From Trichoplax sp. H2 (taxonomy: Eukaryota), in NCBI GenBank assembly GCA_003344405.1, contig NOWV01000153.1, forward strand, positions 1-64,000: DNA of 64,000 bases, read 5' to 3'. Both the position numbers and the translations under genes were made by a program. The notes beneath the pieces are model-generated. The model worked only from the letters and a program-made list of their open reading frames with translations, was not told the origin of the DNA and did not search any database. Of this stretch, positions 19,629 through 52,235 are shown piece by piece (position 1 is the stretch's first letter; the number at the start of each line of letters is the position of its first letter).

Positions 19629-19790
19629 TACTGTACTGTATCATGAGTACGTCCTGTCCAGTACAGTACACTCGTTATGGCAACTACAGTACTCAGTACT
19701 GTAAGAACTGGATTACAGTACTCAGTACTGTAAGAACTGGATGACAGTACTCAGTACTGTAACAACTGGATTACAGTACAGTGTACTGTA
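19629..19790. repeat. (GTACW)n-type array including a 29-bp tandem repeat (~3.7 copies, 19685-19790)
   Basis: Unit TACAGTACTCAGTACTGTAAGAACTGGAT starts at 19685, 19714, 19743 and 19772. Confidence 0.9.
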
Positions 19791-20420
19791 ACCCCAGATG
19801 TCCCCCAAAAAGATGGAGTGCTCACTTTTAGCCTGCTCAGCAGTATCGTAAGTAACTCATTATCCTCATCATTGACTGTGGAATGGACTCCATTCGCTTC
19901 ATTGAGTCATTTCATTCTTGACGGTAGTTGCTGTGATAGTCTACTATGTACTACACTGTATGTCCATCAATGTATCCACGATGTCGTCGATGTATCTGTA
20001 GATCATTTAACGCATGAAATTCATTTGACGCTGTACGCGATTGAACGCTGCAAAATACTCCATCTCACCTCGTCCTATCAAAACAGACACTCGACTGCAT
20101 TCGATTCATTGGACGATGTATAGGATTCAACACTGCAAAGTCTTCAATTGAGCCTCGTAATATGAAAACCTACTGTCTCTTGATATTGTTTTCATGCTAT
20201 ACCACTACATTGCATACTGTGCAGTGTACAATTTAGGCAGTCCTGACTGTCAATGGTGTGAAAAGGCAATGGCAACCCGATAGAATCCGATCCAATGGAT
20301 CATTTTCCAACCCCAAATGAGTAGAATTGCCATACAAACACCGTCATACTATGGAAATTCTTGGCCCCAATCGACCGCTTGCTGTCAGGTTTCGGGTTGA
20401 CGGACCCTGGACGAGAAGAC

Positions 20421-20695
20421 TACAGTACAGATCTCCGTCTACAGTGTACAGTACAGTATAATATTACATATAATTATACAGTACTGTATTAGTTATATTA
20501 CTGTACAGTACTGTACAGTATTGTATATTAAGTAAAATTAATATTATAGTACAGTACAGTATACTGTTTCTATACTCATCCTTCTGTACAGTACAGTACA
20601 CTGTTCAGTAGGACCAGACCAGACCAAGAAAACTACAGTACTACAGTCCGCACTGTACAGTACTGTACTGTACGCCACTGTACATAGTACTGTAT
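20421..20695. repeat. (GTACW)n pentamer array upstream of ZDHHC17
   Basis: Dense TACAG/CTGTA/TACTG runs ending ~110 bp before the ATG at 20804. Confidence 0.9.
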
Positions 20696-20803
20696 GACTG
20701 ACCAGTCAACCAAGTGCCATGCACGCCCTCAACACAACTCGGCGAACTCGCCACATCTTGAAAAGAGAGCAGGCACGTCGAGCGTAAAGCTGTTGGAAAC
20801 AGC

Positions 20804-23800
20804 ATGGAAGAAATGAAAGAAAGCACTTCTCTGACCCAAGCCAATGCAACTTTTCAAAATCCAAATAATGTATGCCTAAAATAACAGTGTAATCAATAGG
20901 TAACCTGATCCTTTTTCGCCTCTATTCCAATTCATCTCCACGTCGTTCCACTAACGAACAATGCTTACCCAGCCAAGTTGTTGTATCTTAGTAACCAATT
21001 GGTCAAGCTCGCTTCACTTGGCCACTCTTGACAATAACCCACACTCAATAGTAATCTTCATCATTCATCCGATTCTTCACTTATATGTAGATAGAGATGT
21101 AGGGTACTATTCATGATTGAGAATCAATTTCTAGACTAGGTTAAGTTGGACGAGCTTTCACGACCTACATCTTTCATTTTTTCCCCTTTGCAAAGTAATG
21201 ACTTCTAGCTGTTGCTAATTGAATTGAATGACCTACATCTTTTATTTTTTCCCCATTGCAAAGTATTGACTTCTAGCTGTTGCTAATTGAATTGAATGTA
21301 ACGTAATATGCTGGTGGATCATGGAAGTCAGTATTGTTCAAAACGAAGACAAATTCTATTGCTGGTAGTTATAGGCTAGACTACAGTAGGCTCCATTGTA
21401 AGCTCATCGGTAGCAATGAAAGCGTTCTAGTGTCATATAAGCTAATCAATCATTACTCTTAAAAGCTGTTAATCAGACCACGCTTGATTGGACAGCTCTA
21501 CGGTCTGCCAACCTTTAGATTAGGAATGATCGAGGAAGGACGCAGTCAGTACAACTCTTTTGACAATAAATCAATGTCACAGTAGCACCTCACTCACTCT
21601 TGGCTTAGATCAGGCCCAGTCCTCTTTACCCCTAGGATCAAAACTAAAAGAGAATACTGCATACATTGACTGCAGCTTAGGATAGACCTGCAATCATAAT
21701 GTCAGTAAACGGTATAGAGTAAAACTGTATTGTCAAGAACCGATTACAGATAGCAACTCACTATCTGATTGTTGAAGCAATAAAATTAAAATTCAGTTGC
21801 GATATTACGGCATATTTCACAGAAATTCTACCATTGATGATCATTTTTTCGGATAACATATTAGAACAATGCCAAACCTGCTGCAGTCGAAAGTGTCAAT
21901 AACCAATTTGAAGGTGATCCTGTTCCTGGTAAGCAAAGGCAAAATAAAACATTAGATTATTCCGAATTCGATCTAGCACAAGCTGCTCAACATGGCGCAT
22001 TCGAGAGATGTGTACAGCTAGTAGATGAAGCGCAAGCTGATGTTTGCCAAACTGATGCAGAGGGCATAACGGCATTGCATTGGGCTGCGATCAATAATCG
22101 ATTAGAGATTGCTGAGTAAGTGCAGTTCAATTTGGATAAATGATCAGCAACTGAGTCCCTATGTGGCGTAATCGTTCTACAGTAAATAAAATTATTCTTT
22201 TCTCTTAGATTTTTCGTTCTTAGAGGTGCAGATATCAATGCACAAGGTGGCCTCCTGAAAGGGACACCTATAAATTGGGCGACAAGACAAGGACACTTAA
22301 AAATGGTCGTCTTGTTAATGAGACATGGAGCTGATCCTTCTATTAAAGATACTGAAGGTAGAATGCGTTCACTCTCCGAAATGTTGCAACTTTATATGTT
22401 TATTATCGCCTTCTACTGATGTACTCGTACTTCAACGATTAATATGATAGGATATGCTTGCCTTCATCTGGCTTGCCAGTTTCATCATACCAACATTGCT
22501 GCTTACTTAATAGCAAAAGGCGAGGTAAATTCTGAACGGTGATCTTACTTGATTCGTTAAATTAAATGATTATAATTCGTATTTTGAAATACAGCATTTG
22601 ACATCAGGTACAAATTATATCAAACAAATTTATACAAATGATTGAAATCAAGATTCTTGCAAAATGTTACTATATGCTTCATAATGGTACTGCTTGATTT
22701 ATATTGGATTAGGAAATAGACATGATGGACGACAATGGTATGACACCGCTGATGTGGGCATCTTACAAATGCCATGGGTAATAAGAGAGCCTGTTTTAGT
22801 TTCGAATACATTACGTTTAACTTACATTAACGGAGCATCCCATATAGCTTCAATACCTATACAGTTATATTCTTTGTTGTGATTATTTTTACAAGTACCA
22901 TAACTTGAGACAATCGACATGATTACGAAATAGTAGTGCAGGTTATTCACTAGGCTTAGAATTTTTTGCATCATAACCAATTTATAATTTATCATCGTAC
23001 GCATGTCTCTACCTCTACATACTCTACGTACAAATAACGCAGGATAAATTACATTAATCTATTGTAGAATAGACCCTGTGCGTTTACTAATATCCTGCGG
23101 TGCTGCTTTAAACTTTCAAGATAATGTTCACCTTAATTCAGGTCGGTTAAATTAAAGCTACTTATTCTCTCGTAACAATATCAATTTCCAATCAATGGGT
23201 ATACAATTGCTTACTAATCACTAACTTATATGCTTACAAAATAGCTATACATTGGGCTTTAACTTCTAATAATGGTAGTGCAATAAGTCAATTGTGTAAT
23301 GCTGGCTGTACATTAGATCTGGTCAATGCGAAGGTTAGATGATAATCAAAATGAGTAATTTGTGTAAAGATTTCCCTACTTATAAGATTCCTATGATCGT
23401 GTAAATGATCTCTGCTTATTGTTAACGTGAGAACTTTAATATCGATATATTTGGTCATGCTGTAGAAAGAAACTCCTTTAGATATTGCTGTAGCAAAAAA
23501 GAATAATTTTGCCATTAAAAAAATTGAAGGCAAACTGAAAAAACAGAAACCGTCTGGGAATAGGATTATTGTTTGGATGACATTAAATAAGGTGCTTTTT
23601 TAGAATTCAATTGAATACAAAATTGATACAATATGTTATGGTAATAGAATCAATTTAGTTACTCTGTGCAATCTATCGTTTCTCTTTACTAGGAATTGGG
23701 TAACAAGGTTATGTTCATATACCCGATTATGGCCTTCGGTGGTATTGGTCTATGTTTGCAGTATGGAAGTTCGTTATTGTGGTCAATGCTATATTTGATC

Positions 23801-25518
23801 TTATTGTGGATAGTATCAGCCCAAGTATTAAAGTAAGATAAAAGATTTGAGATTTTGCTTCTTTAGTATCGTAATAACATAAGTATTTTATAAATTACCT
23901 CTGCTCTCAAATTCTCCTTTACCAAATATCGAAATAGAATTTTTTTAAGAAATACAACATTGATTGAAAGTCCAATCATGGCTTCGTGGTATACTGCCAC
24001 TAAATCTTGGATGTACTTTACCTGGATTTACTTATTTTGGCCATGTATCTGACCACATAATACAAAATATGATGTTTATTGCATTATTGTAACACTACAA
24101 AGTTCACTAACAATGTTACTTTCCTTAATCTATTGCCATCAGTTGTAACTGACTTGCCAACACTTTTAGTATTTGTAATTTCCACCACTGGCATCATGTA
24201 CAATTTTTACCGCGTGGTGTTTAGCGATCCAGGGTATTTAGTTGCTAGTTTAGAACAAAAGAAAAAGGTTAGCGACCGCAATGTAACCATCTTGTCAGAT
24301 TTCTTTTACTTTACCGGGTATATCTGACCTTTAGGCTATCATTTACTTGGCTGAGCATGATGAACTTACCGTGGATACGTTCTGTTCTACATGTTTGGTT
24401 AGTTTGATTAATATTTTCTTCTCGAAATTAACAAATCAATTGTATCATATAGGCTATAACGCCTAGCACTCTGGAATATGGTCATCGATTTACTAATAAT
24501 ATCGTATCATTCTAAATCTATACAATATCGTAGCTCAGGAAGCCAGCACGCTCGAAACATTGTTCGATATGTAATAAATGTGTAGCAGCTATGGATCATC
24601 ACTGCCCGTGGATTTTAAATTGTGTTGGTTCGTTCTAATGTACATTATTTGGAATTTTCGAATGTACTTGGGAACGTAGTTGGTAATACCCAATTTTTTA
24701 ACGCTGTTCTACTTTGACATTTGTAGGAGCAAAAAATCACAAATATTTTGTACAATTTTTATTTTTCTTGGTTGTATTAAATTTTTTATACGCTTTTGGC
24801 GCCCGTCGATGTAAGAATTATCATGTCGTAATTATACATAAATATAGCTTTAGTATTATGTTAGTAGATTGAATTGATTCATTTTACGTATAGACTATAA
24901 CGGAGCTTGCCCGGCCTATAGCAATAACGATTCTGGATGGCTGTATCATTGGATTGTGATTGCATTCAAATGCTCGCCATGGGCGTTCTGGTTGGAATTA
25001 AACTCATGGTTTCACTGCTGCTGGATTGGTATGCTGTTTGTTTGTCAGTTTTATCAGGTACGTCTATGTGCCCATGAATGAACATTGAAACAGATCAGAG
25101 GGTGAAATTTTATTAATCTTAATCACTTAACATCGACATTCACAGTTTCATTTATCTATTAGATGATAATCCTTGGTATGACAACAAATGAACGTATGAA
25201 TAGCTATAGGTATAAACATTTTTACAAGAATGGGAAAATCGCCAGTCCTTTTAGGTTAGTGGTTGAAGGTAGCTTATTCGTAACTGAAAAATATAAAATA
25301 CATGTTCTGTAGTGTTGAAATGATTTAATTCGTAAAGAATAGCTAGTTGTAAAGCTGAGTGTATTTTTCTCTTGTTTAGTCGTGGTATTATAGGCAATTT
25401 TATCCAGTTTTTTGAATGCAGTTGTTGTGGACTTTTTCAAATATATCGCATTGATTGGAGTAACAAGTATCAGCATAACTTGATACCGGAAGAAAACGAC
25501 ATCTACTGGGAAGTATAA
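20804..25518 (+). CDS. ZDHHC17: Ankyrin-repeat DHHC palmitoyltransferase (ZDHHC17/HIP14-ZDHHC13 orthologue), multi-exon
   Basis: Spliced reading gives [32 protein letters not shown], ankyrin exons ([16 protein letters not shown]), TM exons, [30 protein letters not shown] (~24533-24628), GMTTNERMN and a last exon ending NDIYWEV* at 25518. Exon 1 (20804-20869) is less certain. Confidence 0.92.
21162..21298. repeat. 68-bp tandem duplication in ZDHHC17 intron 1
   Basis: GACCTACATCTTT...CTAATTGAATTGAAT repeated at 21162 and 21230 with a few substitutions. Confidence 0.9.
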
Positions 25519-27427
25519 TAAAGCCGTAATTACCATCAATCATTTCATTTCGCCTATGATTTATAAACAACAACTGAAACTATGTCATCATGTAAATTAA
25601 TACGCATTTATATCTACACGATGATGGTTAATTTCTTGAATTTGAAATCCTTGTGATGATAACGTTTTATTTTTTCAGTATATTAAAATTGGCCGTAATC
25701 AGTATCAGTGATGTATCTACGTCGCCGTCTGCTGATTGATGTTGATTTTTCTCTTAGCCCTGTACCACTTCGTTAAGTAACATTTGTTAGACAATACAGG
25801 ATCGATCAGGATTAAGCGAGTGTCTATGCTCTTAAATTGATCAATTTGTACTTTTATCTAATTTATGTAATGTAAGAATCAATTTCGCCTCGTATAACGT
25901 ATGTGGCATTAGATTAAGAATTTTTTTCGTCTTAGTCCGGTTCATGCCGTTGTATCTCATGCTTGTAACTGTATATATATATTTCGACACACTGCCATGT
26001 AACGATTTTATTATGGACGTAGACATACGCGTATGCGTATACAATTATAATCAAATGATAGATGCACACTATTTAGGCTACTCTTCACAGACAAAATGTA
26101 ATAGATATATTGGAAGTATTATATCATGGCGTACTTACTTTATCAGTAACCCATTAAAAAGTAACGAGAGGTTAGGATCGGAACAAACGTGTTCGACTAT
26201 CTAGAATGCAATGGTGTATTCAAATGTTGCAAAAAATCAGTTAGCTGGATAGCCGTATGTTTTGTTTCATGACCCGACGAAATGCATGATATATCTTCAT
26301 ATTGCATCACATTAGCTACTTTAATTAAAGGATGTATATTAATAAATTTTGATATTAAAGAACTACGTATTTATTCCAAGTAAGTAAAGCCTTAAAACAG
26401 TCTCGACTAAGTCCTATTGTACGCTCGATAGTAGCCTCTTACAAATGTTCGTAGTTTCTGTGCGTATCACGATAGTGTGAAATCATTTTAAATTGGATGA
26501 CGGTTGGTAACGTAAATTATATTAATTATTGTTTCGAAAGAAAATAGCACACTTAGATCTAAAGTCAATAAAGCATGACCTTACCACTTATTAACTGCAA
26601 GTCAAATGCTTTATTAATCAATCTCGGTAATAAACTCAAATTTAGTAAATGCTACCTTACAATATCGGGAAATAAATATATCAGTAATTACTACGGCTAC
26701 CAGATACTCTATTGCAATGATCACTTCATTGACATTCCCAAATACCATATATCATATGATACTACTATTTATAGACTGCGCAAAATCAGTTACACCAGAA
26801 GTAGCCAAAATAATCGTTTACAATATAAAGTAGGTTAATTGATGGATAGACAACTACAATTATAACATTATTATCATTATTACAATAAAGCAAATCATTA
26901 TAGAACCATATTGATACATTGAATAAGACGGGATTAACCTATAAAAAGATGGATTTCAAATAAGACTATTCTGGAATCACAATCCTCCATAATTGTAATC
27001 AGTTTTGGTACTTTGAATATGCCTACAACAGGGTGACTTTCAGTTAGACATTGACTTAACCTTCTTCATTTTGGTATGATACAAATTTACATAAAAATTC
27101 AAATGGATGGTCACGGCAATTTTAAGAGCTAACACTATTCGCAACATCGTATAACTGACTACAATTCGTTAATTGTAAGAAACGTGGGAACCGATACAAC
27201 AGAACGCAGAATCACGCCTACAACTACTGTAAAAGACCGATAATTATCCGTTAAGTAGCATTAAAATTAATACAAAAAGCATATCACAAAGTTTTAACAA
27301 GGAAAAGAAACATAGTTATTAGAAAATCCAATGCCATCTGCAGCTTAATTTCTCAGCTAGTTCCTAAATATTAAGACCTAGTCCAAGTGGCGTCAACAGT
27401 AGTGGCTGACTAGCGCCAGTCTTTGTA

Positions 27428-30400
27428 TTACTGTTGCTGTTGCTGTTGGGGTTGTGGTTGTTGAGAGGATCGATCGTCACGATATCTTTGATAGTTGCCA
27501 CCGCCAGAACCACGTGGACGGCCTACATCCGTATATCAAAGGTAATTATTATAAATATGCTCCTTAAATCGTTTACAAAAAAAAATAAGCATGCGATACA
27601 AGAATATAACGAACCTCCACGATTTCCTCCACGATTTCCGCCACGTCCACCACGGTATTGACCATCCTGATTTCCCTTCGTTGTAGTTATTGGTATTAGT
27701 TAGAAAAACATTAATATATTTATGTAATAAAGATAATACTTCAATCTTACAGGGAATCTTCCACCGGCACCTTCTTTTCCACCACGATCGCCATTACGAT
27801 TTCTAATCCTGTTGCGGCCTTGATTGCCACGGCCTCGATTCCCACCTCGAAAATTTCGCGGGCGCCTGTTGCCTTTTTGAGCTAAAGAACAATTGAAATA
27901 AATTTTATATACACGTCTATCTACATTATAGTGCAATTTAATTGCAACAATATTAATTATACATTACTCAAACAATGTGGTGTCGAATGAAACAATCCAT
28001 CAGTAATAATAAATTCCAGTATCACAATTATTGTAAAATCAATGATAAAATACTAAAGCATACATTCAAAACCGTCATCTTTCTCTGTAGCTTCGCCTTG
28101 TTCAGCAAAATCTCCCGTAGGCGCATTAGGGATATTTAACTTTTCTTCGGACACTATATCATGACATGATCTATCTTAGTTTTTTAAATACGCATCGGTA
28201 ATAAGGAACTACTTCACGCAACAGGTGTGTTAGCTCGAGTTGTTTGACAAATACTTTAATCGCAAACATACTAAGTAGTTGGTAAAACGTTGATGAGCAA
28301 ACATTTACCTGAATCCTTCTCGACAGAAACTGCCACTTCGACGTTTTTATCATTGTTCTTTACTTCCTAGAAAATATATAACAATTACTATTAATGGAGT
28401 GCCATCCTTTTTAAGTTAAAATATCAAGACGTATAGTAAAAATCATCAATTACCGCCGGTAACAGTTCGCCACTAGTTACTTCCGCATCTCCATTTGATG
28501 GCCTTTCAACGGTTTCCTGCTGTGGCTCTTCCTTTACTGGTTCAGTAACTTTATCTTTAAGTTCACCAGTATACAATGAGCACAATTCAATTCCTTGCAT
28601 AACTGCCATCAATTTATCATCTGCAAGCAAGTACATTAATAGAGTTAAGAGCTGAATCGATCTTAAAATACCGTAGTTACTAATAGACAAAGTTTAAAAT
28701 CAATGAAAATACTTTATCAGTTAATCGTCTTTGTGAACGTACATGTCGTTCCAACTACAGGCTTTTCTTTCTTTTCTATGAGATTATAAAAATGATCACC
28801 TGATGTCTTCACACTATAATAGATATTAAATGTGGAGAATTAATCCAGAAATAAAACAAGGCCATATGCTTAATAAATCCATAATTAGCATTGGTTAAGA
28901 TAGACTGTAATTATTCCATTAATGCTAAGTACCTTGTTGGATCAAGAACTAGTTCCTGAAAAGCCTCGATTTGACGAATTTCATCCTCATTTAATTTCTA
29001 AACCGCCCAATTTTTTGATAACAACATAACATCGAGATTACTGTTAAGCATTGGCTTTAATAAATAACAATCAGCTAGCTCAATTGGCGTATCCAAATTG
29101 CGTCAAGTGAACGGATGCAATTTTACTAGAGAAAATGAAATCTCTTCGCTTGTTATACTATCTAAATCTTACCGTAGCACCGTTGCTACCTTCCAAGAAG
29201 TACTGTCGAGTCTCAGGATTGACAGCAGCTAGGAGTCTTTGCAATTTCAAGATATCGCAAATTCTGACTCGATCTGCTTCAATTCGTGTTGCTTGCTCTT
29301 TCCTCATTTGCTTTTTTTGATTTTTCTGCCACTGCACCATGCACCCAAAAAAATTTTAAGAAATGAAGATAAATTTTAGCTTTAAATAACAATTTCTCGT
29401 ATAGTACCTCACGTATAATTTATTGCTCTTGAGATGGAGCCTTAAATTATAACATAAGCTAATACAAGTTTGATAGTAGTAAGATTGATGACACCAATCT
29501 ATTCTACATGCTATACAGTATCCTAAACCAATCTCTTTTTATATAGGAAAAGCTGGTTTGCACTGTATGACAACACGCTGCATTTTACCGCTTTAAACAC
29601 TTACAATTGCAGCTAAAAGAGTAAATTACGAAAGGGAATGATTCATAATTAAATTAATACATATTGTATTATTAAAGTAAATGGGCTTTAACGTTAAAAG
29701 TTTACACATAATATTGGATATTGCTCCAAAAATTATGCAATCTTCTGTTTTTAAACTAAACTGACACTAGTACTGGGTCTACTTTGCATTCAATCGGATT
29801 TCATCGCTCAATTACTGCAATTCTAGGTTATCATAAGAACTAAATCAGTTTGCATCCAAAGTAGTTTCATATTTTAACAAAATTACCTCTTCCATCAACT
29901 TATAATATTGCTGATTGATTTCGCGATAAGTTTCCAAATCTGTTTCAACACTTTTAGCCTGACTGATTGCTTCCTATCAAAATATAGATTGTAAATACAC
30001 TAATTAATAACACGTAGAAAATATTTGCTTAAACATTTAAAAAATAGTTATCTATTTCGTGATAAATGTATGTGCACAATAGTAACGGAAGCCTTATCCG
30101 CTAGATCTAGTGTAGCACTCTAATCACATACAAGGCAACATTGACCGATTGGGTTGATAGCGCTTCATTTCTACGAACATGAATTTATGTTACGATATCT
30201 ATATAGAGAGCATGGTAGGATACTACTGAGTCACTATTTCATTAGATCTTGCGCTTTCGTAGTATTACCGTTACCGTGGTTAAACTTATTATATACATGT
30301 ACACAGTATAGTATCATGGAACACTAAATACCATTAAAATACAGTAATAATCAAGGTTCAACCTTATCACTTGAAAAGAAGACAATAATAAATGCAAAAG

Positions 30401-31636
30401 ATAGAACGGATCAAGTGTATTCGATCAGAGGAGAACTACCTGCTTGAACTTATCTATATTGCAATTAAGCAAGAGCAGTTCCATAAAGATCACATAATGT
30501 GTATACTATACACTATACAGTATTAATTAACCTTTATCATACGATTGTCATACCCCAAAAAACTGTAGTAATGAAATAGCGCAATGACATGCAAGTGGTG
30601 CTGCTGCCAGGTACTTTCATGTCGACAAAGTGAAAGGTATCTTATTTTTGTATGCTGCAAAGGTCGACACATAAAGATGTCTATCGATAATACGCCTATG
30701 GAAGTTCTCTACAGTATATTAAAGTAAAGGCTAAGGTTGGTAGAATCCCACCAGACAATCCATTATTGCATTCGATGCTGTCGTTCTACTCTACAGTATC
30801 ACCATCATTGAGCCCGAACGAATTGCCATGCACATTCAATCAAGCACAAGACTGACGAAAGCCATGAGAAGCGGCGGTCTCTTGACCGCACAGTTAACAT
30901 CGTCGATCATGAAATGGAAGTCATAACAAGAGTGATGACAATCTTTACTTGTTGAAAACAGTGCCATTGCTATGACTGCAAATGTCCGTGATAGTATGTC
31001 TACTATCAACTTGCGACACTACATCTTGGGTATCAGTGCAGCTATCATCTGTGCTGATTTGTATCATTCATGCAATATCAAGGGTAAATTTAACGATAGC
31101 GACCAGTTCGTTACCTTTTGATCTTGATTCAGTTCTTTGCCTTCCTCCTCGATTTTTTTCAAATTTTCGAGTTTAGTCTAGGTAGAGAAAGTGATTCAAG
31201 TATCGATTTAATTGCATACAAAGTGGTCGAAGATTATCCAAAATTCCACATGTTATGCGTGGGAAAAACGTCTAGTAACATGATGCAAATTGAAAGTAGG
31301 AAATACGTCCACTTTCTATTTATGCCATAACGATCCATCTATTTATACTCTCTACTATCAACTGTACCAATAAAATGGAGCAGTTTCCAATCGATACATG
31401 AACTAACGTGCACTAGACTGCTTCAAATTGATTGTGATGTACCATAACCGCAATGGCATTTTGTCATTGAAAGTCAAGATCACTTTCCATACCTTTCTCT
31501 TACACAAATTGCGAATTTTCTTATCAATAACACCAATAAAGGACCTTGCTAATGATTCTTCATTGGTTTCTATCGCTTTTGGGTTGCTTAGAGCATTAGC
31601 CACTTGGCTAGAATCTTCGTTAGCTGCAGCTGGCAT
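27428..31636 (-). CDS. CAPRIN1: Caprin family RNA-granule protein, multi-exon
   Basis: Exons read IGVIDKKIRNLCKRK|TKLENLKKIEEEGKELNQDQK|EAIS..., then EKPVVGTT (Caprin HR1 region). The C-terminal exons are RG/RGG-rich and end QQPQPQQQQQQ* at 27428. Confidence 0.85.
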
Positions 31637-31782
31637 GATGGAAATGGATTAGTAAGAAGAAGTCAATCAAAATGGCGGTGGTTGATCAACGTTAGTAGCC
31701 GAAAAAAATTGGCGTATGAGATACAGCATGGGAAATCACATGCTTTATCAGCTTGAATTTAGCTCCGGTCTAGTTGTAGGGT

Positions 31783-33295
31783 ACTGTATGGAAGGTGAGT
31801 ATCAATTTTATACTGTACTATAGAAGAATAATCCTGTCCATCGTCGATGACTGTACACCACCGGAATGGCTCAGATTGGGATGATCAGTACGGTATTTTA
31901 CAGTACTATTCACTGTAGACTACAGTACTCCAACTGCCTCTACAGTACTATACACTGTTCACTTACTGGACCGTACCGTAAAGTCTGTACGTAGTATACT
32001 GTACGCTTCATTGGCAATGCCACCAGGTTTCTTAGCACGTTTCCTACTGTACTGTACCGTACTCAGTGTACCATACTGTACTGTACAGTGTACAGTACAG
32101 TCCTGTACTACACAGTGTAAAGTACTGTACCTGTTGTACTGTAGGTGAGATAGGTGAGATCAGGAGCTTGTGAGCAAGTCCCTGGTAAGAACCCAATGAA
32201 CACTGCGGGCGCTTGAATGCGCCCCAAAATCATATGGCCATCAACAGGCATCGTATTCAGACAACTATATCCATCATTTCATGTTATAGCTTCCTCTGAC
32301 CGCTAGGAGTTGTGGATTCCAATGATGTGTTACATGATCCTTCCAACACCTTGAAATATTACCATGCCAGTTCAGCATGAGGGCAGACTTTGTTTGGTTT
32401 TTGTTTATCCTAACAACATCCCTTCCTCTACAGTACTCGGTACTGCACTGTACAGTACATTGCAACTTTACGGCGTCTTGAATTTCATTGTACTGTACTG
32501 TACTGTACTGTACAGTGTACAGTACAGTAGATCTGACTTTTAGATACAGTGTACTGTACTGTACTGTGCAATACTGAGTGAGAAAAATATTACTAAAACC
32601 GATGGGCTAATGCAGTAAGTAGTTGATACCAACTGTACATCTGTTAAATTAGCTTCTACCGAAAATAATATTGCTGTACAGTGTCTGTAGAGACCCTTTT
32701 GAAGGGTCTCTAGTGTACAGTGTGCAACATACTGTATATCTTTCTATTTATAGACTGTCGACGACAGCGAGAGAGAGATGTTTTAATTAATTATACTGTA
32801 CGCGACATCAATTTTGCAAACGATTGTAGAGACCCCCATTTAGCTTTTCAGTTCGATACCCTAATTTTGTTCATATTGTACGGCCATATGTAGCTGTACA
32901 GTACAAAGTAGCTGAGACAGCGATACAATAGGTATATCAATAAAAGAGAAAGCACTTTTTCGCTAGCCACTGATGTAAGAAATAATCAAGGAAGTCGCTC
33001 GCAAAATTAACATCACTTGGAAAAAGTCATGAGCACAACTCAAGTCAGTCGGGTTGCAGCAATGCCGGTTTTCTTCTTTATTAACCTGTAATCACCTCGA
33101 TGGTTTCAGTCTGTCAGTCTGTAACTACTGGACGCTGTACAGTGTACAGTACAGTACTGTACTATGCTATGCAATACAGTACCAGTGTTCAGAACACAAT
33201 CTGCAGTCAGTACGGTACTGTACTCCAATCATCCAGTTTAGTGTCAACTACAGGAGACACTACAGTACGTACTGTACAAAGTGTACAGTACACCC
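31783..33295. promoter_or_regulatory. Divergent CAPRIN/RCN promoter region with three (GTACW)n arrays (~31783-32145, ~32429-32570, ~33125-33295)
   Basis: Head-to-head ATGs at 31636 (-) and 33471 (+). Pentamer arrays fill the interval, and a YY1-like AAAATGGCGG lies nearby at ~31669-31678. Confidence 0.7.
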
Positions 33296-33470
33296 GCAAG
33301 TTATTGTTTACTCTATCCTTTGTACGCATGCACCCACCATATTGTCTTCCTGTAGTTGCAAGTTTATTTAATAGACTGAACATTTGAATTTCAATCAATA
33401 TCCCAAGTGCTGTAGATTAGTTCTTGCTCGATAGCAAATTGGATAGTATCAGGAAGGGCAGAGAAAGAAG

Positions 33471-35714
33471 ATGATGGCGAATTCGGGCAAAAAATGGATC
33501 GTATGGATCACCATTTATTTCATCGTTGTACCACATTATCGTTGCCAACGATACCATCCTGGTGGCAGTAGGTTAGACATGGAAGATCTACTAGGTGAAA
33601 AACATTACGATGAATGGGGTCATCATAATGCTGAGTTTGATCATCGTGCTTTCATTGGTGAAGAAGACGATACATTTCACGAATATTCTGAAGAAGATGC
33701 TAGTGATAGACTGATGTTAGTAATATGCAATGAACACTTTGCGTTATGATTGCCTGGTCAACCTTATTTCCTTTCATACTTGATTAATGTAATACAGCCT
33801 ACGAAAGCAGTAGAGTGCATGGATTAATGGATAGGAGTACGAATTAATAAACGCATAATAATATGTAAAATGATACGATTCCGTACTGATGGACCAACCT
33901 AAACGTTTGTGTTTCAAAATACTAGTGTAACATAGAGTATCAGTCATCGTTGTTAGGAAGCAAATTTTGCAATTAGGTAATTCGTACATTCTATCTTGTA
34001 TTGTTGTATTTTACAGCACAGTTTTCGACGAAATTGATACGAATATGGATGAATATATCGATAAAAATGAAATGAAAGCACGAATTAAGGGCAACCAACT
34101 CAAACGTTTAGAAAAGGAATCTAGAGAAAAATTTAAAGTCTTAGATGTCAATGAAGATAGCATGCTGCCATGGGAAGAGTATAAGCAAGTCATGTTTGCC
34201 AACGATTTAGCTGAAAACAATGGTAAGCAAATCTTCAACAAATTGAAAATCTACTGACAACGTAATACCAACTTGATAAAGTGGAATAAAATTTTCCAGT
34301 ATCTGCAGGAGTTTATCGAAGAATAAAAATTGTATCTGCTTAATGACATGAGTGATATCTTAAGTAATATACTAACATCACTAGTCAACAATGTGTATGC
34401 AGTCCAGTGATATAAATCATTATTAATTAGTCCTCCATCATATGATGTGACATTGTTATCGCTAAAATAGAATGACAGACAAAATTAATGACTCTAAAAA
34501 GTAATTCTATATATGATAATTACTTATTCCCATTATTCTATCGATAGGGAAACTAAGTGACTCTATGCAATCTATGTATACAAATGATCACCGAAAATTC
34601 ATTGACGCTGATCAGGATAATGACGGAATGTTAACCTTAACCGAATTTGCGGCCTTTAACTTTCCTCATAATTTCCCTCATATGCAAAATGCTTTAGCTA
34701 TGGTAAATCAATAGGAAATAAAATTAAGTAAACATAAAAGTAACCTAGCATTGATTTTTTACATTACTTTCAGTTCCAATTTCATTTGCATTAGCTTCAA
34801 TTTTATTAACTAAATTATGCACATTGTTCTTCTCGTTAATACTTAGGAATCGTTGGATACGTACGATAAAAACAAGGATGGTAAAATTTCATGGAAGGAA
34901 TACATTTGTAAGTCAATTGCTGTCGCTGAATTTCTTAAATAATGTGATTTTGAGACTTGTTTACATAACCAAACTGTTTGTGTGCATAACCACAAATCAT
35001 TCTATATTGTGCAATACATTGTACATATATTGAAAATAGGATCAACTAATCCGATTCTTTTGATCACTCTCAATTCAGCGAGTATGTATAACTCAGAAGA
35101 TAACAAAGAACAACCTGGTTGGGTGCGCGATGAAGAGAAAATTTACCTCCTCAGGCATGATAAAGACGGAGATGAATTATTAGACCTGGTGTGATTTTAT
35201 TTGCATATATCCCAGATGTGTGTTACCTTTTCTACTATTAGCAATGATTAGTATCGTTCAACGAAAAATATTCTAAGAATACTTTAAACAACTTCATGTT
35301 CTCTAACTATTGTCATTATCAAAAAATAACCTTGACTGAATTATTATCAGTCAGAAATAAAGAGTTGGATTGCTCCAGAGGAGAATAACGATGAAGAAGA
35401 GGAAGCTAATCACCTTATTGAATCTGCCGATCTTGATCAGGTCATCTTAAACTGCACTTTACTTACGACTAAAATAAGAAAAATTGTACCATGGGGAAAA
35501 ATATATTAATAGTCTGTCTAATGAACAGAAATAATAAAAGATTATTAATAACTGAAATATTTTACGGTCTAACCTGTAGGATGGAAAACTCACAAGAGAA
35601 GAACTTCTTAGCCATCAGTCTCTTTTTGCTGGCCATACGAAAAAATCACGTAAATATGAAGATCCGGATTTCGACTTCGATTATCATGCTGACCGTTATC
35701 ATGATGAGTTATAA
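33471..35714 (+). CDS. RCN1: CREC-family EF-hand ER protein (reticulocalbin/calumenin-like), multi-exon
   Basis: Signal peptide, HNAEFDHRAFIG motif, EF-hand loops (DTNMDEYID, DVNEDSMLP, DQDNDGMLT, DKNKDGKIS, DKDGDELLD, DLDQ|DGKLT) and a C-terminal HDEL* at 35700-35714. The specific vertebrate paralogue cannot be assigned. Confidence 0.88.
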
Positions 35715-39300: not shown

Positions 39301-39346
39301 AGCTACCGACGCCTTTAGAAGATTTTTTCTTAAAACTGGATGTCAT
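36309..39346 (-). CDS. ELP4: Elongator complex protein 4, multi-exon
   Basis: MTSSFKKK..GTTPSLRNGQLITSTGVPAIDSLI|GGGLPIGTTLVV|EED..KYFLAEG, IAWRYQ, FKLKRKKFAIE|KMFLPPDL, ending MDF* at 36309. Confidence 0.93.
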
Positions 39347-39494
39347 TATCCTTGACAATTAATTTGCAAGCAAAATCGCACGTAAAAGGACCACAATATA
39401 TCCCAAATTAAACCATATTATAAATTTCCAGGTGGCCAGCTCTTTTGGCGGAACACATTTCGAAGCGATATTGTCTGTATGGACCATAAAGTTA

Positions 39495-39695
39495 TACTGT
39501 ACTGTACTGTATACTGTATAAAGATAAAATAAAATATCTCTATGGCACTGTACAGTACTATACTGTACTGTACAGTACAGTACTGTACTGTACGTGTGTG
39601 GTACAGTATGGACTTTCATGTTCAATAGCAAACAGAGTACTTAGTACTGTACTATCAGGGGACTTTTCGATTTTTTATACTGTACTGTATTGTAC
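39495..39695. repeat. (GTACW)n pentamer array upstream of ELP4
   Basis: For example TACTGTACTGTACAGTACAGTACTGTACTGTAC at ~39561-39593. The array begins ~150 bp upstream of the ATG. Confidence 0.9.
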
Positions 39696-41772
39696 AAATG
39701 TGTAGAATAGATGTCGTTTAAAAACTCATGCTACAGTAGAGATATGCTCGAAACTAGCGACATCTTTTTTACGTAAATGTGCATTGTATGAGAAAAGTCG
39801 CTGAAGTACGGCTACAGTATGTCTGTGTCTATTGTATCATGACAAGGGATGCCAGACGTGACTCCATTCACCTCCATTGATGACAGACGCAGAGCGTTAC
39901 AATGAATGAATGAAAGCTAAAATAAAAACAAGATTTGCAAGTCGTCATTATCACGCAGCAATGGCGAAGTTTGTTTGCTGTTACGATGTATTTAGAAATC
40001 TGAACCTATTGCAATGGCATTCCGTGCTCAATTATTTCTTAATAAGACATAACTAACTCACGAAGGGATACGAAAACTATACAGTACAGTAAATCAATTC
40101 GAGATCAAGGTTCTTTCAGATCTTTTATTTTACATAATCAATAATCAGTAATCAATTATAATGTAATTTAGTAAGGTACTTTCGTCAAGTTAAATGCGCG
40201 TACAAGATAACCGTCCATATTTTTCAGTGACTAAAGCGTACCTTATTGTCAATTTTTCGCCATAAGTTACAAGTTTATACGAGCGCTGAACAACGATAAT
40301 GACTAATTTTACCATAACCGCATTTCCCCTGTGCTGTAAACTAGAGCAAGTATGACAATCTATCTATTTACTGTAGTCCTTGAAATGATACCAAACGAAA
40401 CTTTTACAATACAACCGCGTCCCAAAAAAATAAAAAATAATATTTTGACTCCGTGCAATTTCGAGAAGTAGTCTATCAAATGGTAACACCAACGTTGTAA
40501 TGATTACTTTATGACGAACCAGGAACGAGAATAATTCGTGATTAAAGGATAAAAGTTGACAAACGTTTGGCTATTAATAATAATGTTAGTACGTATTAGC
40601 CATCATTCATATTAGGAATAAAATAAAATTACGGTTTAGTGGAAACTGTACTCTACGTACTTTCAATTCAGTATCTTTAAAGCTTAAGCTAGATATTTTG
40701 AAAGTATCATCATCCTACGATAACGTCAGAATCAGAACAATTTTGCAACAGAGTTACCGTATGCTATAAAATGCAAATACAGTAAACTATACTTCGGACT
40801 AGCGAAATTAAATCAGTCTTTCAGCGCTCCTTTGGAAAATTTATACGGTCTTTGTTTGAGTCTATTTTATCGAAAGTAGTCAGACTTCACACATAGATGT
40901 TACCCTAAATTAATAAAGGCTATCAATTAAGGCAAAAATAAAAAGGCAGTAAAAAATTGTACGCTATTCCTGGTCATTGGCGACATACGTACGTGCAGCA
41001 CATTAAAACCAGTGTTAGTTAAAAATGTTAATAGTATCAGGATTGAGCCCTATAGTTCTATCTAGTGCTTCCAATTCGTTTTTAACATAGTATTGAAAGA
41101 AGATTTTAAAACCCTACAAAGAAATTTTGCCAGCAAATGCTGCGAGCTACTTTGTAACAATATTTATTTTCGAAGCCAAAACTGCTGTCCCTGATGGCTG
41201 CGATCATTTTCAAATTGACAAAGTACAAATGTGATCGTCGTCTATCACTGAAGCAAAAATTTACTCTCTTTTCAAGCAGTCATTCACAATAAAATGACTT
41301 GCATAGCTATTACACGTTAACCTATATCCTTTTCCTTTACAACAAATACATCCGTAAATGTTTGACTGTCCAGCAGTGGGTATGCTGTATATATATTTAT
41401 ACTGTGCTGTACATATGGATGATACGATTTGAATTTGTTCCATGCTATCTGATATAATCTGCGCACTAGAAAGTTTTTCATCCGCAAACTGAAATTGTCA
41501 GATTTTATTCCGCGATTTAGTATTCCCTTACTCGCCTATTGATGAGTATAAGTACTCCGTAATCATTTTACTAATTCCACAAAATAACTCGAACACCGGG
41601 CTCATTCGAAGGTTGAACAAATTTTATTTTGTTGTATTATCAAGCTCAATATTTCATCACAATTACAGGAAAATTGAATTTCTCATAATAACTAGCATTA
41701 GCAGTAATTATTTTGAACAGACTCTCGATGACAGCGTATATTAGAAAGGAAAATTAACAATCGGTTTTCTTA

Positions 41773-43179
<1,407 letters not shown>

Positions 43180-43330: not shown

Positions 43331-43369
43331 TATTTACTTAGATAAGCGCAATTGTTTACCAGGGTAATG

Positions 43370-43812
43370 ACAGTACGGTACAGTAATTGACCTATGAGGC
43401 CGCTGGGGGATGACGATGCGAAAGTGCACTGTACTGTATGCAGTATTGTACTGGATGTGCACCATCATTACGGTACTGACTTGTATTTGTTTTTAGGATC
43501 GACGCTACCGTAACGAGTCACTACCGTGATCGATCGTCAAACAAAGAAAGAGTCATTGTCTACAAATCAATCGAGCGTTCATACTGTATTCCTCTACGTG
43601 GGTTATCAACATTGACACAGTGCGCAGTAAACACAGGCAGTGTACTGTAGTACAGTACTTTGACCTTATACAGTACAGTACAAGCTTGAATATTCATCAA
43701 CATACAGTATAGTACAGTACTGTACAGTACAGTGTACAGTACTGTACATACTCTACAGTGAACAATTCCTAGAGAAACATTACACATTACTGCCGGTACT
43801 GTACTGTACTGA
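43370..43812. repeat. (GTACW)n pentamer array upstream of polyubiquitin
   Basis: Scattered units at 43370-43480 and dense runs at 43640-43812. Confidence 0.85.
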
Positions 43813-49400: not shown

Positions 49401-51255
49401 CATTTAGCAAAATTTCGCAAAGTAGTCAGAACATGAAATGGCTGCCCATGTAATTTCGCTTTAGTACTGATACAACATTCATGCAGATGACAATGCTAAA
49501 GCCGTATTAACCAGTTACGCATTTACCACGTTATTATATTTGGTTACAATATCTTTGTCTTGGACAACTAATTCTATCTTAATCTTTGCAAGAAAGATTA
49601 ATATGTATACGTATGCAAGAGATCAAATTACTTCAACTAACCTGTTACCAAAAACTGCGTCAGGATATCAGCTACCCGCTTGCAATATTGGCTATCGTCC
49701 TTACAAAGTTCAGGAAAATGCTTTACAGCAGCCTTCCGCACCTAGTAATAAGTAATTTCATACAAATATCAATTTTTATCATTAGTCTAAATACTTACTT
49801 GCGTACTTGCATCAGCTTTTATGAGTGATTTATTCCATTTACTAAATAAACTAACACTAACAATTGATAAATTGGCTAAACTAGTTTAACACTATTGTTA
49901 GTATCCGATAATGAAAAGTAGACTGACAATGCCAAACACTAGCGTCAAGAAATGTTAGGCAAATATAAAATACTATACAGCAAATTGAATCACTAGCCCA
50001 AGACGAACAATGCCATATTTAGATACAATTTAGGGAGCTTAGAGATTTCAATTTATAGCTGGTACTAGCCATGACCTCTGGTGTTATTGGATATGAATGC
50101 TAGTTATCAAAGAAGTCACGTCTATTCTAATGTATCATTCACTGTACTGCAAGTATGAAACGATACTAACATTACTTTCTTCATCTTCAATTAAATCAAT
50201 CTGCTTATCGAAGGCTTCTTCAGCTAAATCTGGGAAATGCTTGAAGAATTTAGGAATAAATGAGGCTGAAAGTAGCTTCTCTTTCGAATCGCCTTGCGTA
50301 GCTTGCAATATAATCTTGTAACTTTCGGCATGCTACAGATAGAATATAATCAATTAATTCAAAGAGCAACCCAAAACTGAAATTAAAATTGATCTTCCAA
50401 GCGTTTCGAAAGTACTCGTGAGTTTAAGAAAAGCCTATCCATTACGTTGTAACGATCTACTATGATATCCGTTGCAAATATTATAGGGGTGGTAAGGTAA
50501 GCAATCACGATACATAACCGTTCCATTTAAATGTAAAATATTACTTCGATCGAATTGACATGGTCAATATTTTTCAACGCAGTATATTGATGCACATCAG
50601 AACACCAGCCATGATTCAATTTCACCAATCTCGATCATTATCTTAATGTACAGTCATACTATGTACTATGACTATCAACAGTTTGCTGCCATTCCTATGC
50701 AAGTCTGCAGTAATTAATATCAATATAAGTAGACTTTAAACATCGGGTTCAACCAGGAATACATAACCAGGCTACTCAACGATATCATGGCAACGGTTTG
50801 GACAAGTAGCCAATTGGACGATCTTGAATGTAGTATTGTACGCGTATAGCACTCTCTCACTGCATCTACATAGCCCAGCATAGCCAAAATTTGCAAGTGT
50901 AAGCGATATAGTAGTATACTACGCTCACTTACTGAGCTATTCAAGGAAAAAAGCCATCAATAATGTGTTACTACTACTGTCCATGACCTATTTATCAATC
51001 GCTGAAGCATCCTCTCCTACCCTACTGTATCCTACTGTACTACAACAGCAATGTGCTACAGCCATTCTACTACAAAATGGTTGCCATGAAAAAATGGATA
51101 TCTTTCCTTGTAAGATTTTATTTACCTTGAAATTTGCTTATCAAATTACTGCAGCTTATACATAATAAATTGTGCTGTACCTGATTTTTATCAGCAGCAT
51201 CTGCTAATATGCCATAATGCTTGTATAATTCTGAAACACCAATCACTTCAGCCAT
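46449..51255 (-). CDS. API5: Apoptosis inhibitor 5, multi-exon
   Basis: MAEVIGVSELYKHYGILADAADKNQ|HAESYKIILQATQGDSKEKLLSASFIPKFFKHFPDLAEEAFDKQIDLIEDEE, ADILTQFL, DVTEEEF, FSYVECLLYTFHRL, RLQYF and a basic tail ending RRSNWS* at 46449. Confidence 0.93.
48240..48340 (-). ncRNA. Candidate intronic box C/D snoRNA in an API5 intron
   Basis: On the API5 sense strand: box C ATGATGA (48340-48334), C'-like ATGATTA, box D CTGA (48243-48240), 90 nt upstream of the 3' splice site. The segment is GC-richer than the surrounding intron. Confidence 0.4.
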
Positions 51256-51392
51256 GCCACTGCTAGTCCGCACAATTTGTCCGCGTTTACGCTGACTTCG
51301 TCACAAAACCAAGGATGAATAATGGCGTTAGAGTGCGCAAGCGTGAATGATTTTTGTATTCATGAAAAGCATCGAGTTAACTCTACACTGAG

Positions 51393-52235
51393 TCTACAGT
51401 ACAGTACTGTATGATTGAAACACAGGAAAGCGAAGTAACAACAAGTACTGTACACTGTACAGTGTACAGTATACTGTACTGTAGTTACTTTTCATAGATA
51501 CAGTATGTAAGCTCTTCTTTTCTTGACAGTTGGTAGCACTAGTGACGACTCTGTAGTAGTGTTCTGCTAGCAGCTTCATCAAACTGCCTTGTCAGACGAT
51601 AACGTTAAATGCAAGCATGTGTAAAACAGATGTCGTCAAAATCTTTTATGATAAAGTGATTATCTTTTACCGCAAAGTGCAACAGCGGCGTAGCCTATTA
51701 TTATGCAGCGCCTGAGAAGAAAAAACTAGTCTAGTACTGCACAGTGCACACTTGCGCAGTAGCGTACTACAATCAGTCGTACAGTACAGTACAGTACTGT
51801 ACTGTACTGTACTGTACTTGACGAATAACTACTGTAGTACTGTGCATTACTTGTACTGTACATTTTACTGACGCAATGACTACAGTCAAGTCTACTGTTT
51901 TCCTGAATGGGAAAGTCAGTGATTCAGAATCGACTTTAGCTTCTGAAAAGTATCAGGATTTTTATTCAGGTTATTCAGAAGAATCACACACACCCAGGCT
52001 AGTAACAGAATTGGTCTACTGTACTGTACATAGATAACATAGATAACTAGACAGTTAACCTAGATAACATAGATAACATAGATAACTCGTCTGATACACT
52101 GTACTATGTATTGTACTATGCGGTAGATAAGCGACGCTTATCAATTGTTCTTATATTACTGTACTGTACTGTAAACCAAATCATACGTACAGTACAGTAC
52201 AGTGCTCTACAATTCACGATCAAATTACTATACTG
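51393..52235. promoter_or_regulatory. Divergent API5/MANSC promoter region with (GTACW)n arrays and an AGATAA cluster
   Basis: Arrays at ~51393-51485, ~51733-51865 and ~52018-52235; 34-bp perfect palindrome at 51779-51812; TAGATAAC(A) repeats at 52031-52086. Confidence 0.7.

Follow-up and report, generated by a model that had tools for sequence, protein, structure and literature searches.

The window, i.e. the whole 64,000-nt stretch of DNA analysed here, contains 11 genes with placeable starts, and this one window constitutes our sample. Judging from protein likeness, its host is Trichoplax: the best named relative of a 631-aa protein encoded in the window is T. adhaerens TRIADDRAFT_2109, with 92% identity over 93% of the query. 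This protein is the product of a FERRY3/C12orf4-like gene (17405–19297, minus strand), which forms a single exon in the window and belongs to PF10154. Six further genes concern us here: a ZDHHC17-like gene (ATG at 20804), a CAPRIN-like gene (minus strand, ATG at 31636), an RCN-like gene (plus strand, ATG at 33471, with an EF-hand exon by Pfam), ELP4 (minus strand, ATG at 39346, with a PAXNEB exon by Pfam), a polyubiquitin gene (41778–43146, minus strand, six repeats of 228 nt, ATG at 43146) and API5 (minus strand, ATG at 51255, with an API5 exon by Pfam). Pfam assigned no family to two CAPRIN-like exons, one ZDHHC17 exon and the first RCN exon; we take the CAPRIN-like gene to be such from the call of an earlier note on this DNA and from the likeness of its N-terminal exon to Caprin-1. 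The seven genes are termed housekeeping by homology-based identity, not by expression. The remaining four genes are two GPCRs, a PAN/mucin-like gene and a PTTG1IP-like gene.

Word counts revealed a strong excess of one short pattern upstream of the seven genes. The earlier note had described arrays of GTAC pentamers at seven intervals, and these arrays are real: GTACWGTAC is matched 62 times, whereas 100 dinucleotide shuffles of the window give a mean of 0.36 and a maximum of 2. Those intervals, which occupy 2,883 bp (4.5%) of the window, contain 59 of the 62, and the other three are found at 10029, 32896 and 45358. TACWGTA is the commonest heptamer of the window, with 167 copies against 14.7 ± 4.0 in 100 Markov-1 simulations. 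Ten clusters with a combined length of 1,904 bp take up 112 of these copies, and five 5′ intergenic regions (4,365 bp) hold 119, a density of 27.3 per kb as opposed to 0.80 per kb. The window has 22 perfect ACAGT runs of more than 12 bp on either strand (13–25 nt); all of them lie in the five 5′ regions, 140–982 bp upstream of an ATG and always within 1 kb. The genome mean, calculated from the counts of Wang et al. (2010; 0.78 × 7,233 in 104 Mb), is about 3.5 ACAGT repeats per 64 kb. The array sequence is abundant at many loci elsewhere in the genome: in a DNA run (X2), contig depths sum to about 95–118 in most bins of the window, but to 1,045, 3,663, 2,643 and 12,266 in the four array-richest bins. 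From this run, 3,071 contig records aligned to the window, 1,098 of them partially; the consensus agreement of their loose ends is 0.37–0.57 in 22 of the 24 rows listed, and 0.77 and 1 in the other two, with one or two reads each.

In the 1 kb upstream of the ATG, the seven named genes carry 10–25 TACWGTA each, compared with 0–1 at the two GPCRs, the PAN/mucin-like gene and the PTTG1IP-like gene. Within the window, the arrays are thus confined to 5′ intergenic regions, as had been claimed, and the distances from array to ATG given in the earlier note (~330, ~110, ~150, ~180, ~150, ~225 and ~140 bp) agree with ours within a few bases. The AT-rich introns and 3′ regions of the array-bearing genes hold no blocks. 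Neither an Rfam family nor a tRNA (ARAGORN) was detected in the window, so no RNA gene accounts for the gene-less side of the arrays upstream of ELP4, polyubiquitin and API5 (clusters 6, 7 and 8–10 below), and the ORF lists contain nothing convincing on these sides.

Cluster 1 (19629–19790) lies 332–493 bp upstream of the FERRY3/C12orf4-like ATG and has 10 TACWGTA; it includes a tandem repeat at 19685–19791 (29-bp unit, 3.7 copies) with a 19-nt palindrome in each unit, and its DNA hairpin scores a z of −5.3. Upstream of the ZDHHC17-like gene, cluster 2 (20421–20694) has 18 TACWGTA and four perfect ACAGT runs longer than 12 bp. Three clusters follow around the next two genes: cluster 3 (31782–32143, 13 TACWGTA) upstream of the CAPRIN-like gene, cluster 4 (32429–32563, 10 TACWGTA, hairpin z −3.0) midway along the divergent intergenic region between CAPRIN and RCN, with a perfect ACAGT run of 25 nt at 32489–32513, and cluster 5 (33145–33290, 8 TACWGTA) upstream of the RCN-like gene. 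Cluster 6 (39495–39819), upstream of ELP4, has 17 TACWGTA, and cluster 7 (43582–43808), upstream of polyubiquitin, has 13 with a hairpin z of −3.0, plus two outlying words near 43379. The API5 upstream region harbors the last three: cluster 8 (51395–51505, 8 TACWGTA), 140 bp upstream of the ATG; cluster 9 (51780–51860, 9 TACWGTA, hairpin z −5.5), in which (GTACA)3 followed by (GTACT)4 makes up the longest perfect run, with 8 GTACs at 51779–51817; and cluster 10 (52157–52237), at the distal end of the region, with 6 TACWGTA and two 17-nt perfect runs.

These clusters are built of short blocks. In the five array regions, the step from one GTAC to the next is 5 bp in 63 intervals and 7 bp in 13, and the spacers of the 5-bp steps are A in 28 cases, T in 32, C in one and G in two; outside the array regions the 5-bp step occurs only three times. 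The 5-bp phase persists over about 25–30 bp and is lost beyond, indicating that the blocks are independent of each other, and only six runs reach four or more GTACs. The description as (GTAC-W)n arrays therefore stands for the 5-bp step and the A/T spacer, but the extent of the feature is that of clusters of short blocks rather than of long arrays. Orientation is balanced overall (51 TACAGTA, 61 TACTGTA) and mixed inside every cluster. Adjacent spacers flip orientation in 9 of 25 cases (36%), about ten times as often as in the ACAGT arrays of two other collections (3%–5%; 29 of 926 and 63 of 1,337), whose loci, none of them assignable to a placozoan, served solely as a comparison set for orientation flips. 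The uniform orientation of a plain slippage microsatellite is thus not seen here. Given that GTAC is self-complementary, each block is near-palindromic whatever its register.

The earlier note knew of no description of this sequence, yet the repeat was reported in 2010 and named again in 2026. According to the available text of Wang et al. (2010, Biol Direct 5:18; PMC2871265), ACAGT is the dominant simple sequence repeat of T. adhaerens and makes up 78% of its 7,233 pentanucleotide repeats; of the ACAGT repeats, 54% lie in the 1 kb upstream of genes and 85% in the 5 kb upstream. Hence the genome-wide link to gene starts, on which the earlier note would have its reading checked, is already published. 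The same text gives a GO enrichment for translation and protein modification, with ribosomal-protein genes enriched, and proposes a role of ACAGT as a transcription-factor-binding site. With perfect runs of more than 12 bp that lie less than 1 kb upstream of genes in a Trichoplax host, the arrays of the window are the (ACAGT)n promoter microsatellite of Trichoplax known since 2010; they are real and promoter-linked, and unit, placement and organism group agree with the published repeat. Wang et al., in the text available, count perfect repeats of one orientation, whereas the orientation flips and the GTAC-phased reading are described here, as are the several blocks per promoter and the runs of adjacent array-bearing genes.

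Two later publications connect placozoan promoters with three-dimensional chromatin, and this link, like the genome-wide upstream bias, is taken from print. In the available text of Kim et al. (2025, Nature; PMC12221973), about one third of T. adhaerens genes (~3,000), mostly housekeeping, form promoter hubs, their median size being four promoters, and the GP1 genes are highly and broadly expressed. They find a motif enriched at loop anchors, shared by the orthologous promoters of four placozoans through conservation, and ascribe it to the terminal inverted repeats (TIRs) of Mutator transposons, which were annotated with EDTA v2.1.0 and are enriched in GP1 promoters. Such hubs of neighboring genes fit the run of seven adjacent array-bearing genes in our window. 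The array words are absent from that available text, the letters of the motif being given only as a figure logo. As for Chimaera (NAR 2026; PMC12817080), its available text states that a network trained on T. adhaerens Micro-C data yielded the "repeating motifs ACGG and ACAGT". Its motif searches targeted insulation, fountains and, for T. adhaerens, loops; the motifs so found altered the predictions under in-silico mutagenesis, and the network predicts insulation at gene starts. Unit and species of its ACAGT motif are as here, but the motif appears in a single sentence that, in this text, is linked neither to the promoters of particular genes nor to the 2010 paper. Moreover, the Chimaera authors equate the transposon motif of Kim et al. 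with the "ACGG" repeat and list ACAGT separately, as a second one. No cluster of at least three ACGG/CCGT within 40 bp exists anywhere in the window, and only seven TACSGTA words occur within the arrays, which leaves ACAGT arrays tied to promoter hubs only indirectly. Kim et al. do not cite Wang et al., the title phrase of the latter being absent from both text and reference list, and in the searchable literature texts, of which just two mention ACAGT together with Trichoplax, we found no paper connecting the publications of 2010, 2025 and 2026. Among the matches listed, literature hits to array strings concern primers, miRNA sites and similar and none concerns placozoans; none of the listed Trichoplax papers mentioning GTAC is relevant.

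Our preferred reading, to which we assign a probability of roughly 55%, is that the arrays, as instances of the (ACAGT)n promoter microsatellite, act as homotypic clusters of a palindromic site for a sequence-specific protein. The balance of A and T spacers, the frequent flips, the mixed orientation and the independence of the blocks argue for a site rather than pure slippage. The arrays are clusters of short, independently phased blocks, each with 2–8 GTAC cores 5 bp (sometimes 7 bp) apart and A or T between them, and sit about 50–950 bp upstream of genes that serve general functions of the cell. In this putative model, TACWGTA or GTACWGTAC would serve as the palindromic recognition site of the putative protein, multivalent binding of which may keep the promoters open and insulated. 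Bound arrays may then bridge promoters into the promoter hubs seen in placozoan Micro-C data, and replication slippage in 5-bp steps would drive turnover of the copy number. Both the binding of a protein and a causal part of the arrays in these chromatin features are inferred. Other animals, too, have broadly active promoters marked by clustered or low-complexity short motifs that are tied to open chromatin and insulation, such as GAGA repeats with GAF, CGATA clusters of BEAF-32, DRE and Motif 1 at Drosophila housekeeping promoters, and the CpG islands of vertebrates. These systems employ other sequences and proteins, and the likeness is one of analogy only.

Alternatively, the arrays might be a neutral by-product, in which a slippage-prone microsatellite arises in open promoter DNA poor in nucleosomes and lasts there, itself having no role. 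The repeat is indeed widespread: (GTACW)4GTAC is present in 81 stretches of a genome contig collection and at least 113 of a metagenome contig collection, so the sequence is not specific to the lineage, contrary to the earlier note; of its interpretation, the promoter placement and the lack of transposon hallmarks hold, and the lineage-specific and undescribed nature do not. In many sources the repeat is an ordinary microsatellite of one orientation, so that its existence calls for no special function. Neutrality also fits the array lengths, which differ between two close lineages by 5-nt steps or by blocks of array words. Runs of a related organism carry a TACAG insertion at 20633, a 5-nt deletion at 39526 and a GTACT insertion at 39805, besides insertions of 18 nt at 32629 and 20 nt at 33282 in the related lineage, and 7 of the 12 indels listed lie within or beside arrays. 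Such whole-unit variation between close relatives is what plain slippage predicts, and the 5-bp-step indels between the two close Trichoplax lineages show a fast, slippage-like turnover that is equally expected of a neutral repeat. However, pure slippage would yield uniform units, against which the 36% of flips count; each promoter has many independent short blocks rather than one long tract, and the AT-rich introns and the 3′ regions of the same genes lack them. The published GO enrichment (PMC2871265) and, if the motif corresponds to the arrays, the promoter motif shared by four species (PMC12221973) also speak against neutrality, in so far as the available texts go. We consider a purely neutral origin unlikely.

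The proposal of Kim et al. for the loop-anchor motif, applied here, would make the arrays TIRs or remnants of Mutator-type, MITE-like transposons that prefer active promoters. It draws on the published enrichment of Mutators in GP1 promoters, with the motif inside TIRs (PMC12221973, available text), and on inverted array pairs in the window, up to 47 nt long with 83% complementarity and 362 nt apart, which resemble Mutators or MITEs in having similar sequence inverted within a few hundred bp. The complementarity of these pairs, however, consists of pentamer units only. With array words masked, no similarity at E < 0.05 is left among the five regions or between them and other parts of the window. 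Among 148 outward-maximal inverted pairs (exact arms of at least 12 nt), flanks resembling target-site duplications (TSDs; at most one mismatch) occur in three, all 8 nt long and built of array words. All ten ORFs of at least 70 aa in the array regions lack a Pfam family above the cut-off, and the flanks of array copies at other genomic sites differ from one another on both sides. Thus the array regions revealed no family-specific TIR, no TSD of ~9–11 bp, and neither a MULE transposase (in ORFs of at least 70 aa) nor multi-copy internal sequence, which bears out the claim that the arrays have no shared ends, transposon body or real TSD. In addition, T. adhaerens was reported to have a transposon content of 0.13%, with 6 fragments of MuDR and a single MITE family in ~20 copies (PMC2871265, available text), and for the Chimaera authors the transposon motif is "ACGG" rather than ACAGT (PMC12817080, available text). 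A Mutator origin of the arrays is therefore quite improbable.

A purely structural role, in which half-turn phasing and quasi-palindromes, with no protein dedicated to them, keep nucleosomes away or extrude cruciforms when transcription supercoils the DNA, is very improbable as well. The self-complementary GTAC makes every block near-palindromic, and six of nine array segments form better DNA hairpins than their dinucleotide shuffles, with z from −2.8 to −5.5; among them is a perfect 21-bp stem at 51776–51818 in cluster 9. The other three segments, however, do not surpass their shuffles (z from −0.8 to −1.8), single-strand folding is uninformative on extrusion in chromatin, and a strict GTAC core with a free W spacer suggests a recognition site more than a rule for bending. 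Finally, GTAC as a DNA-modification target that marks promoters, suggested by the many methyltransferase sites that are 4-bp palindromes as well, is hardly credible, as GTAC is not depleted outside the arrays (198 of the 357 in the window, with 198 expected for the whole window from base composition). The nanopore methylation calls of Kim et al. cover CG only, according to the available text (PMC12221973).

Returning to the palindromic-site clusters, the contribution of this window is a set of seven adjacent promoters free of transposon hallmarks, with arrays that behave like such clusters; the discovery of the repeat itself dates from 2010. A large share of placozoan gene starts bear the repeat, which makes it a strong candidate for the sequence that underlies promoter hubs and the insulation of gene starts, and the copy number driven by slippage would offer an unusually evolvable means to set promoter strength or 3D contacts. 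A broader proposal, which we put forward as possible but doubtful, is that the ACAGT microsatellite of 2010, the loop-anchor motif of 2025 and the network motif of 2026 are one GTAC-phased, orientation-mixed code for housekeeping hubs. If so, the "Mutator" label would come from a structure-based annotator that takes inverted microsatellite blocks for TIRs, and placozoans would have built a genome-wide architecture on an evolvable simple repeat rather than on a domesticated transposon. The absence of transposon hallmarks in this window bears on testing the "Mutator" interpretation of 2025.

We also searched the gene starts for a YY1-like motif, AANATGGCG, which gave five matches against 1.5 expected; five of 100 shuffles reached five, and the motif is thus not enriched. 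The edges of RNA-run contigs lie on the gene side of the arrays, which is weak evidence for placement as contigs cannot show a transcript start: one contig (X20, record 25) starts at 20782, between cluster 2 and the ZDHHC17-like ATG, while others reach 31708 at the CAPRIN-like gene and begin at 33448 at the RCN-like gene. The CAPRIN RNA contig carries 37 unaligned letters at its 5′ end.

The GTAC-W pentamer arrays of the window (W = A or T) are instances of an element already known, the ACAGT promoter microsatellite of Trichoplax, which an earlier note correctly rediscovered. The window has 62 copies of GTACWGTAC; in 100 dinucleotide-preserving shuffles of it, the mean was 0.36 and the highest count 2. 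The seven intervals drawn in that note (sum 2,883 bp, 4.5% of the window) contain 59 of these 62 copies, so the arrays reported there are real. In k-mer counts of the window, the top heptamer outside pure A/T words is TACAGTA/TACTGTA, i.e., TACWGTA, with 167 occurrences against 14.7 ± 4.0 expected from 100 Markov-1 simulations. Ten clusters with a combined span of 1,904 bp contain 112 of the 167; five regions (sum 4,365 bp) contain 119, yielding 27.3 per kb versus 0.80 per kb elsewhere.

All seven array-bearing genes have 10–25 TACWGTA within 1 kb upstream of the ATG, the nearest lying 112–332 bp away. They are a FERRY3/C12orf4-like gene (ATG 19297, minus strand; PF10154), a ZDHHC17-like gene (20804, plus; ankyrin exons), a gene without Pfam match in its exons (31636, minus), an RCN-like gene (33471, plus; EF-hand), ELP4 (39346, minus; PAXNEB), polyubiquitin (43146, minus; six repeats) and API5 (51255, minus; API5 family). 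The gene at 31636 we take to be CAPRIN-like. Over the same distance, 0–1 such words precede each of two GPCR genes, a PAN/mucin-like gene and a PTTG1IP-like gene, and the convergent 3' junctions in the window have no TACWGTA. The promoter placement claimed for the seven genes, as opposed to the GPCR and PTTG1IP-like genes, is thus borne out. The divergent pairs FERRY3/ZDHHC17 and CAPRIN/RCN flank two of the five array regions; for the other three, ORF lists, Rfam and ARAGORN gave no convincing far-side gene. At 20782, 31708 and 33448, each time between the gene and the blocks nearest to it, contigs from RNA runs begin or end, though such contigs cannot prove a transcript start.

Within the five array regions, GTAC follows GTAC at a 5-bp step in 63 intervals (only 3 outside) and at a 7-bp step in 13. 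The spacer base at the 5-bp steps is A in 28 cases, T in 32, C in 1 and G in 2. As GTACT and GTACA are one pentamer, ACAGT, on opposite strands, the orientation switching described earlier is an ACAGT tract flipping strand; the two orientations are balanced (51 TACAGTA vs 61 TACTGTA), and every cluster is mixed. Perfect runs extend to 8 GTACs at most (51779–51817), and only six comprise at least four. The 5-bp register, with its minor 7-bp class, persists for about 25–30 bp and is lost beyond. Each promoter thus has several independent blocks with unique DNA between them, not one decayed long microsatellite. At 19685–19791, a 29-bp unit is repeated 3.7 times with 92% matches, and each unit contains a 19-nt perfect palindrome with two GTACs 7 bp apart; this tract is therefore a higher-order repeat made from the array motif. 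A small hairpin-like palindrome at 32686–32722 has TAGAGACCC arms with array words on either side, and TAGAGACCC occurs again at about 32830.

The earlier note knew of no description of the arrays, which the literature overturns: the repeat has been in print since 2010. Wang et al. (PMC2871265) reported 11,697 microsatellites in T. adhaerens, of which 7,233 (61.8%) are pentanucleotide and 78% of these ACAGT; the 1 kb upstream of genes holds 54% of the ACAGT repeats, and the 5 kb upstream 85%. Enriched GO terms include translation, chiefly through ribosomal proteins, and protein modification, and a role as a transcription-factor site was suggested. Their rule (perfect repeat > 12 bp) picks out 22 runs in the window, every one in the five promoter regions; the genome average calculated from their figures is about 3.5 per 64 kb. 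Only two works in the searchable literature name ACAGT together with Trichoplax. Kim et al. 2025 (PMC12221973), who do not cite Wang et al., described promoter hubs formed by about 3,000 mostly housekeeping genes (GP1), whose loop anchors are enriched for a motif conserved in four placozoans and sitting in the TIRs of EDTA-annotated Mutator elements; the available running text does not give its letters. The Chimaera network motif of 2026, a repeating ACAGT, came from searches aimed at insulation, fountains and, for T. adhaerens, loops (PMC12817080). That the three are one element, with the Mutator label an artefact of structure-based annotation, is a tentative reading, held down by the Chimaera authors' assignment of the transposon motif to ACGG, which points the other way. 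To the published picture the window adds that GTAC is phased around a free W spacer, that flips are frequent, that each promoter has several independent blocks, that seven array-bearing genes stand in a row, and that transposon hallmarks are lacking.

Public sequencing runs were aligned to 20000–39999. The summed contig depth of the DNA run X2 is about 95–118 in most bins, 160 and 222 in two edge bins, and 1,045, 3,663, 2,643 and 12,266 in the four array-richest bins. Among 3,071 aligned records, 1,098 fit only partly and 825 fit two places. Among the matches listed, the loose ends to either side of a block agree with their consensus at 0.37–0.57 in 22 of 24 rows, and at 0.77 and 1 in the other two, of one or two reads each. 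Together, the excess depth, partial fits and discordant ends indicate a very large number of loci that carry the blocks amid unrelated flanking sequence. In the RNA runs X19 and X20, array bins have summed depths of 72–99 versus about 1–26 in most bins, the well-expressed CAPRIN-like gene body being an exception, and 115 of 151 and 79 of 116 records, respectively, fit only partly. Array words are thus present in RNA-library contigs from other loci, by either transcription there or DNA carry-over.

The sequence is not peculiar to placozoans, and the claim of lineage specificity fails at this level, since the 24-letter (GTACW)4GTAC was found in 81 stretches of a prokaryote genome collection and at least 113 metagenome contigs. 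Most of the arrays found there are long and keep one orientation, whereas those of the window are short and mixed: adjacent spacers flip in 9 of 25 cases in the window, but in 29 of 926 and 63 of 1,337 in the two collections. Several of the long ACAGT arrays in the genome collection (L018, L051, L058, L070, L072, L078 and others) lie in contigs of bacterial MAGs binned as Rubritalea, Metamycoplasmataceae and Dehalococcoidia, with up to 300 TACWGTA in 8 kb; binning of eukaryotic host DNA with the bacteria may explain them. A few outside contigs have window-like mixed arrays, among them L165 (1245–1464), a higher-order repeat of roughly 60 bp, and L003 (3293–3482), adjoining an (AGTAT)n tract.

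We consider it most likely, at a probability of roughly 0.55, that the blocks form homotypic clusters of palindromic sites recognised by a putative protein, whose binding would hold promoters of broad activity open and insulated and might also link them into hubs, while slippage would supply copy-number turnover. The sequence features were observed here, and the upstream bias and chromatin link are taken from print; from these we infer binding and causation. Compared with a closely related organism, array lengths differ by 5-nt steps or array-word blocks: insertions of TACAG at 20633, GTACT at 39805, 18 nt at 32629 and 20 nt at 33282, and a 5-nt loss at 39526. Seven of the 12 indels listed (12 of 18 in all) lie in or beside arrays. 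Neutral slippage in open chromatin is nevertheless an unlikely account, as a near-free A/T spacer next to an unvarying GTAC in fixed register, with such frequent flips, looks like site constraint and not simple unit slippage.

An origin from Mutator TIRs, the source given by Kim et al. for their own motif, is quite improbable. Inverted pairs in the arrays reach 47 nt at 83% complementarity, but are built of pentamer units only. Once array words are masked, sensitive self-BLAST finds no similarity at E < 0.05 between any of the five regions, or between them and other parts of the window; TSD-like flanks accompany just 3 of 148 outward-maximal inverted pairs, all three 8 nt of array words; and none of ten ORFs of at least 70 aa in the array regions has a Pfam family above cut-off. 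The absence of shared ends, TIRs and TSDs noted earlier accordingly holds in the window. In T. adhaerens, TE content is 0.13%, with six MuDR fragments and one MITE family of about 20 copies (PMC2871265). A structural role independent of protein is very unlikely; as single-stranded DNA, six of nine array segments form hairpins beating their own shuffles (z -2.8 to -5.5), and the remaining three fold no better (z -0.8 to -1.8). GTAC as a modification target is extremely improbable.

Several minor features concern the genes themselves. CAPRIN-like, RCN-like, ELP4 and API5 genes adjoin one another at 26500–51255, with no PAX6-like gene between RCN and ELP4 in the window. Their human counterparts are all on 11p13-p12, and this shared location would suggest an old conserved linkage. 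The X20 contig at the CAPRIN-like 5' end (31708–31745) has 37 extra 5' letters absent from the window, which may be divergence, a misjoin or an added leader. Two paralogous GPCR genes lie at 2349–3392 and 8433–9530, both on the minus strand; the first comprises two adjacent same-frame ORFs (2349–2945 and 2946–3392), hence one in-frame stop at a point that the paralogue reads through; this could mean a pseudogene, a variant or an error of assembly. A 68-bp unit is repeated twice (95% matches) at 21162–21298, shortly downstream of the first ZDHHC17-like exon. The FERRY3-like protein of 631 aa marks the genome as Trichoplax, its nearest relative being T. adhaerens TRIADDRAFT_2109 with 92% identity.
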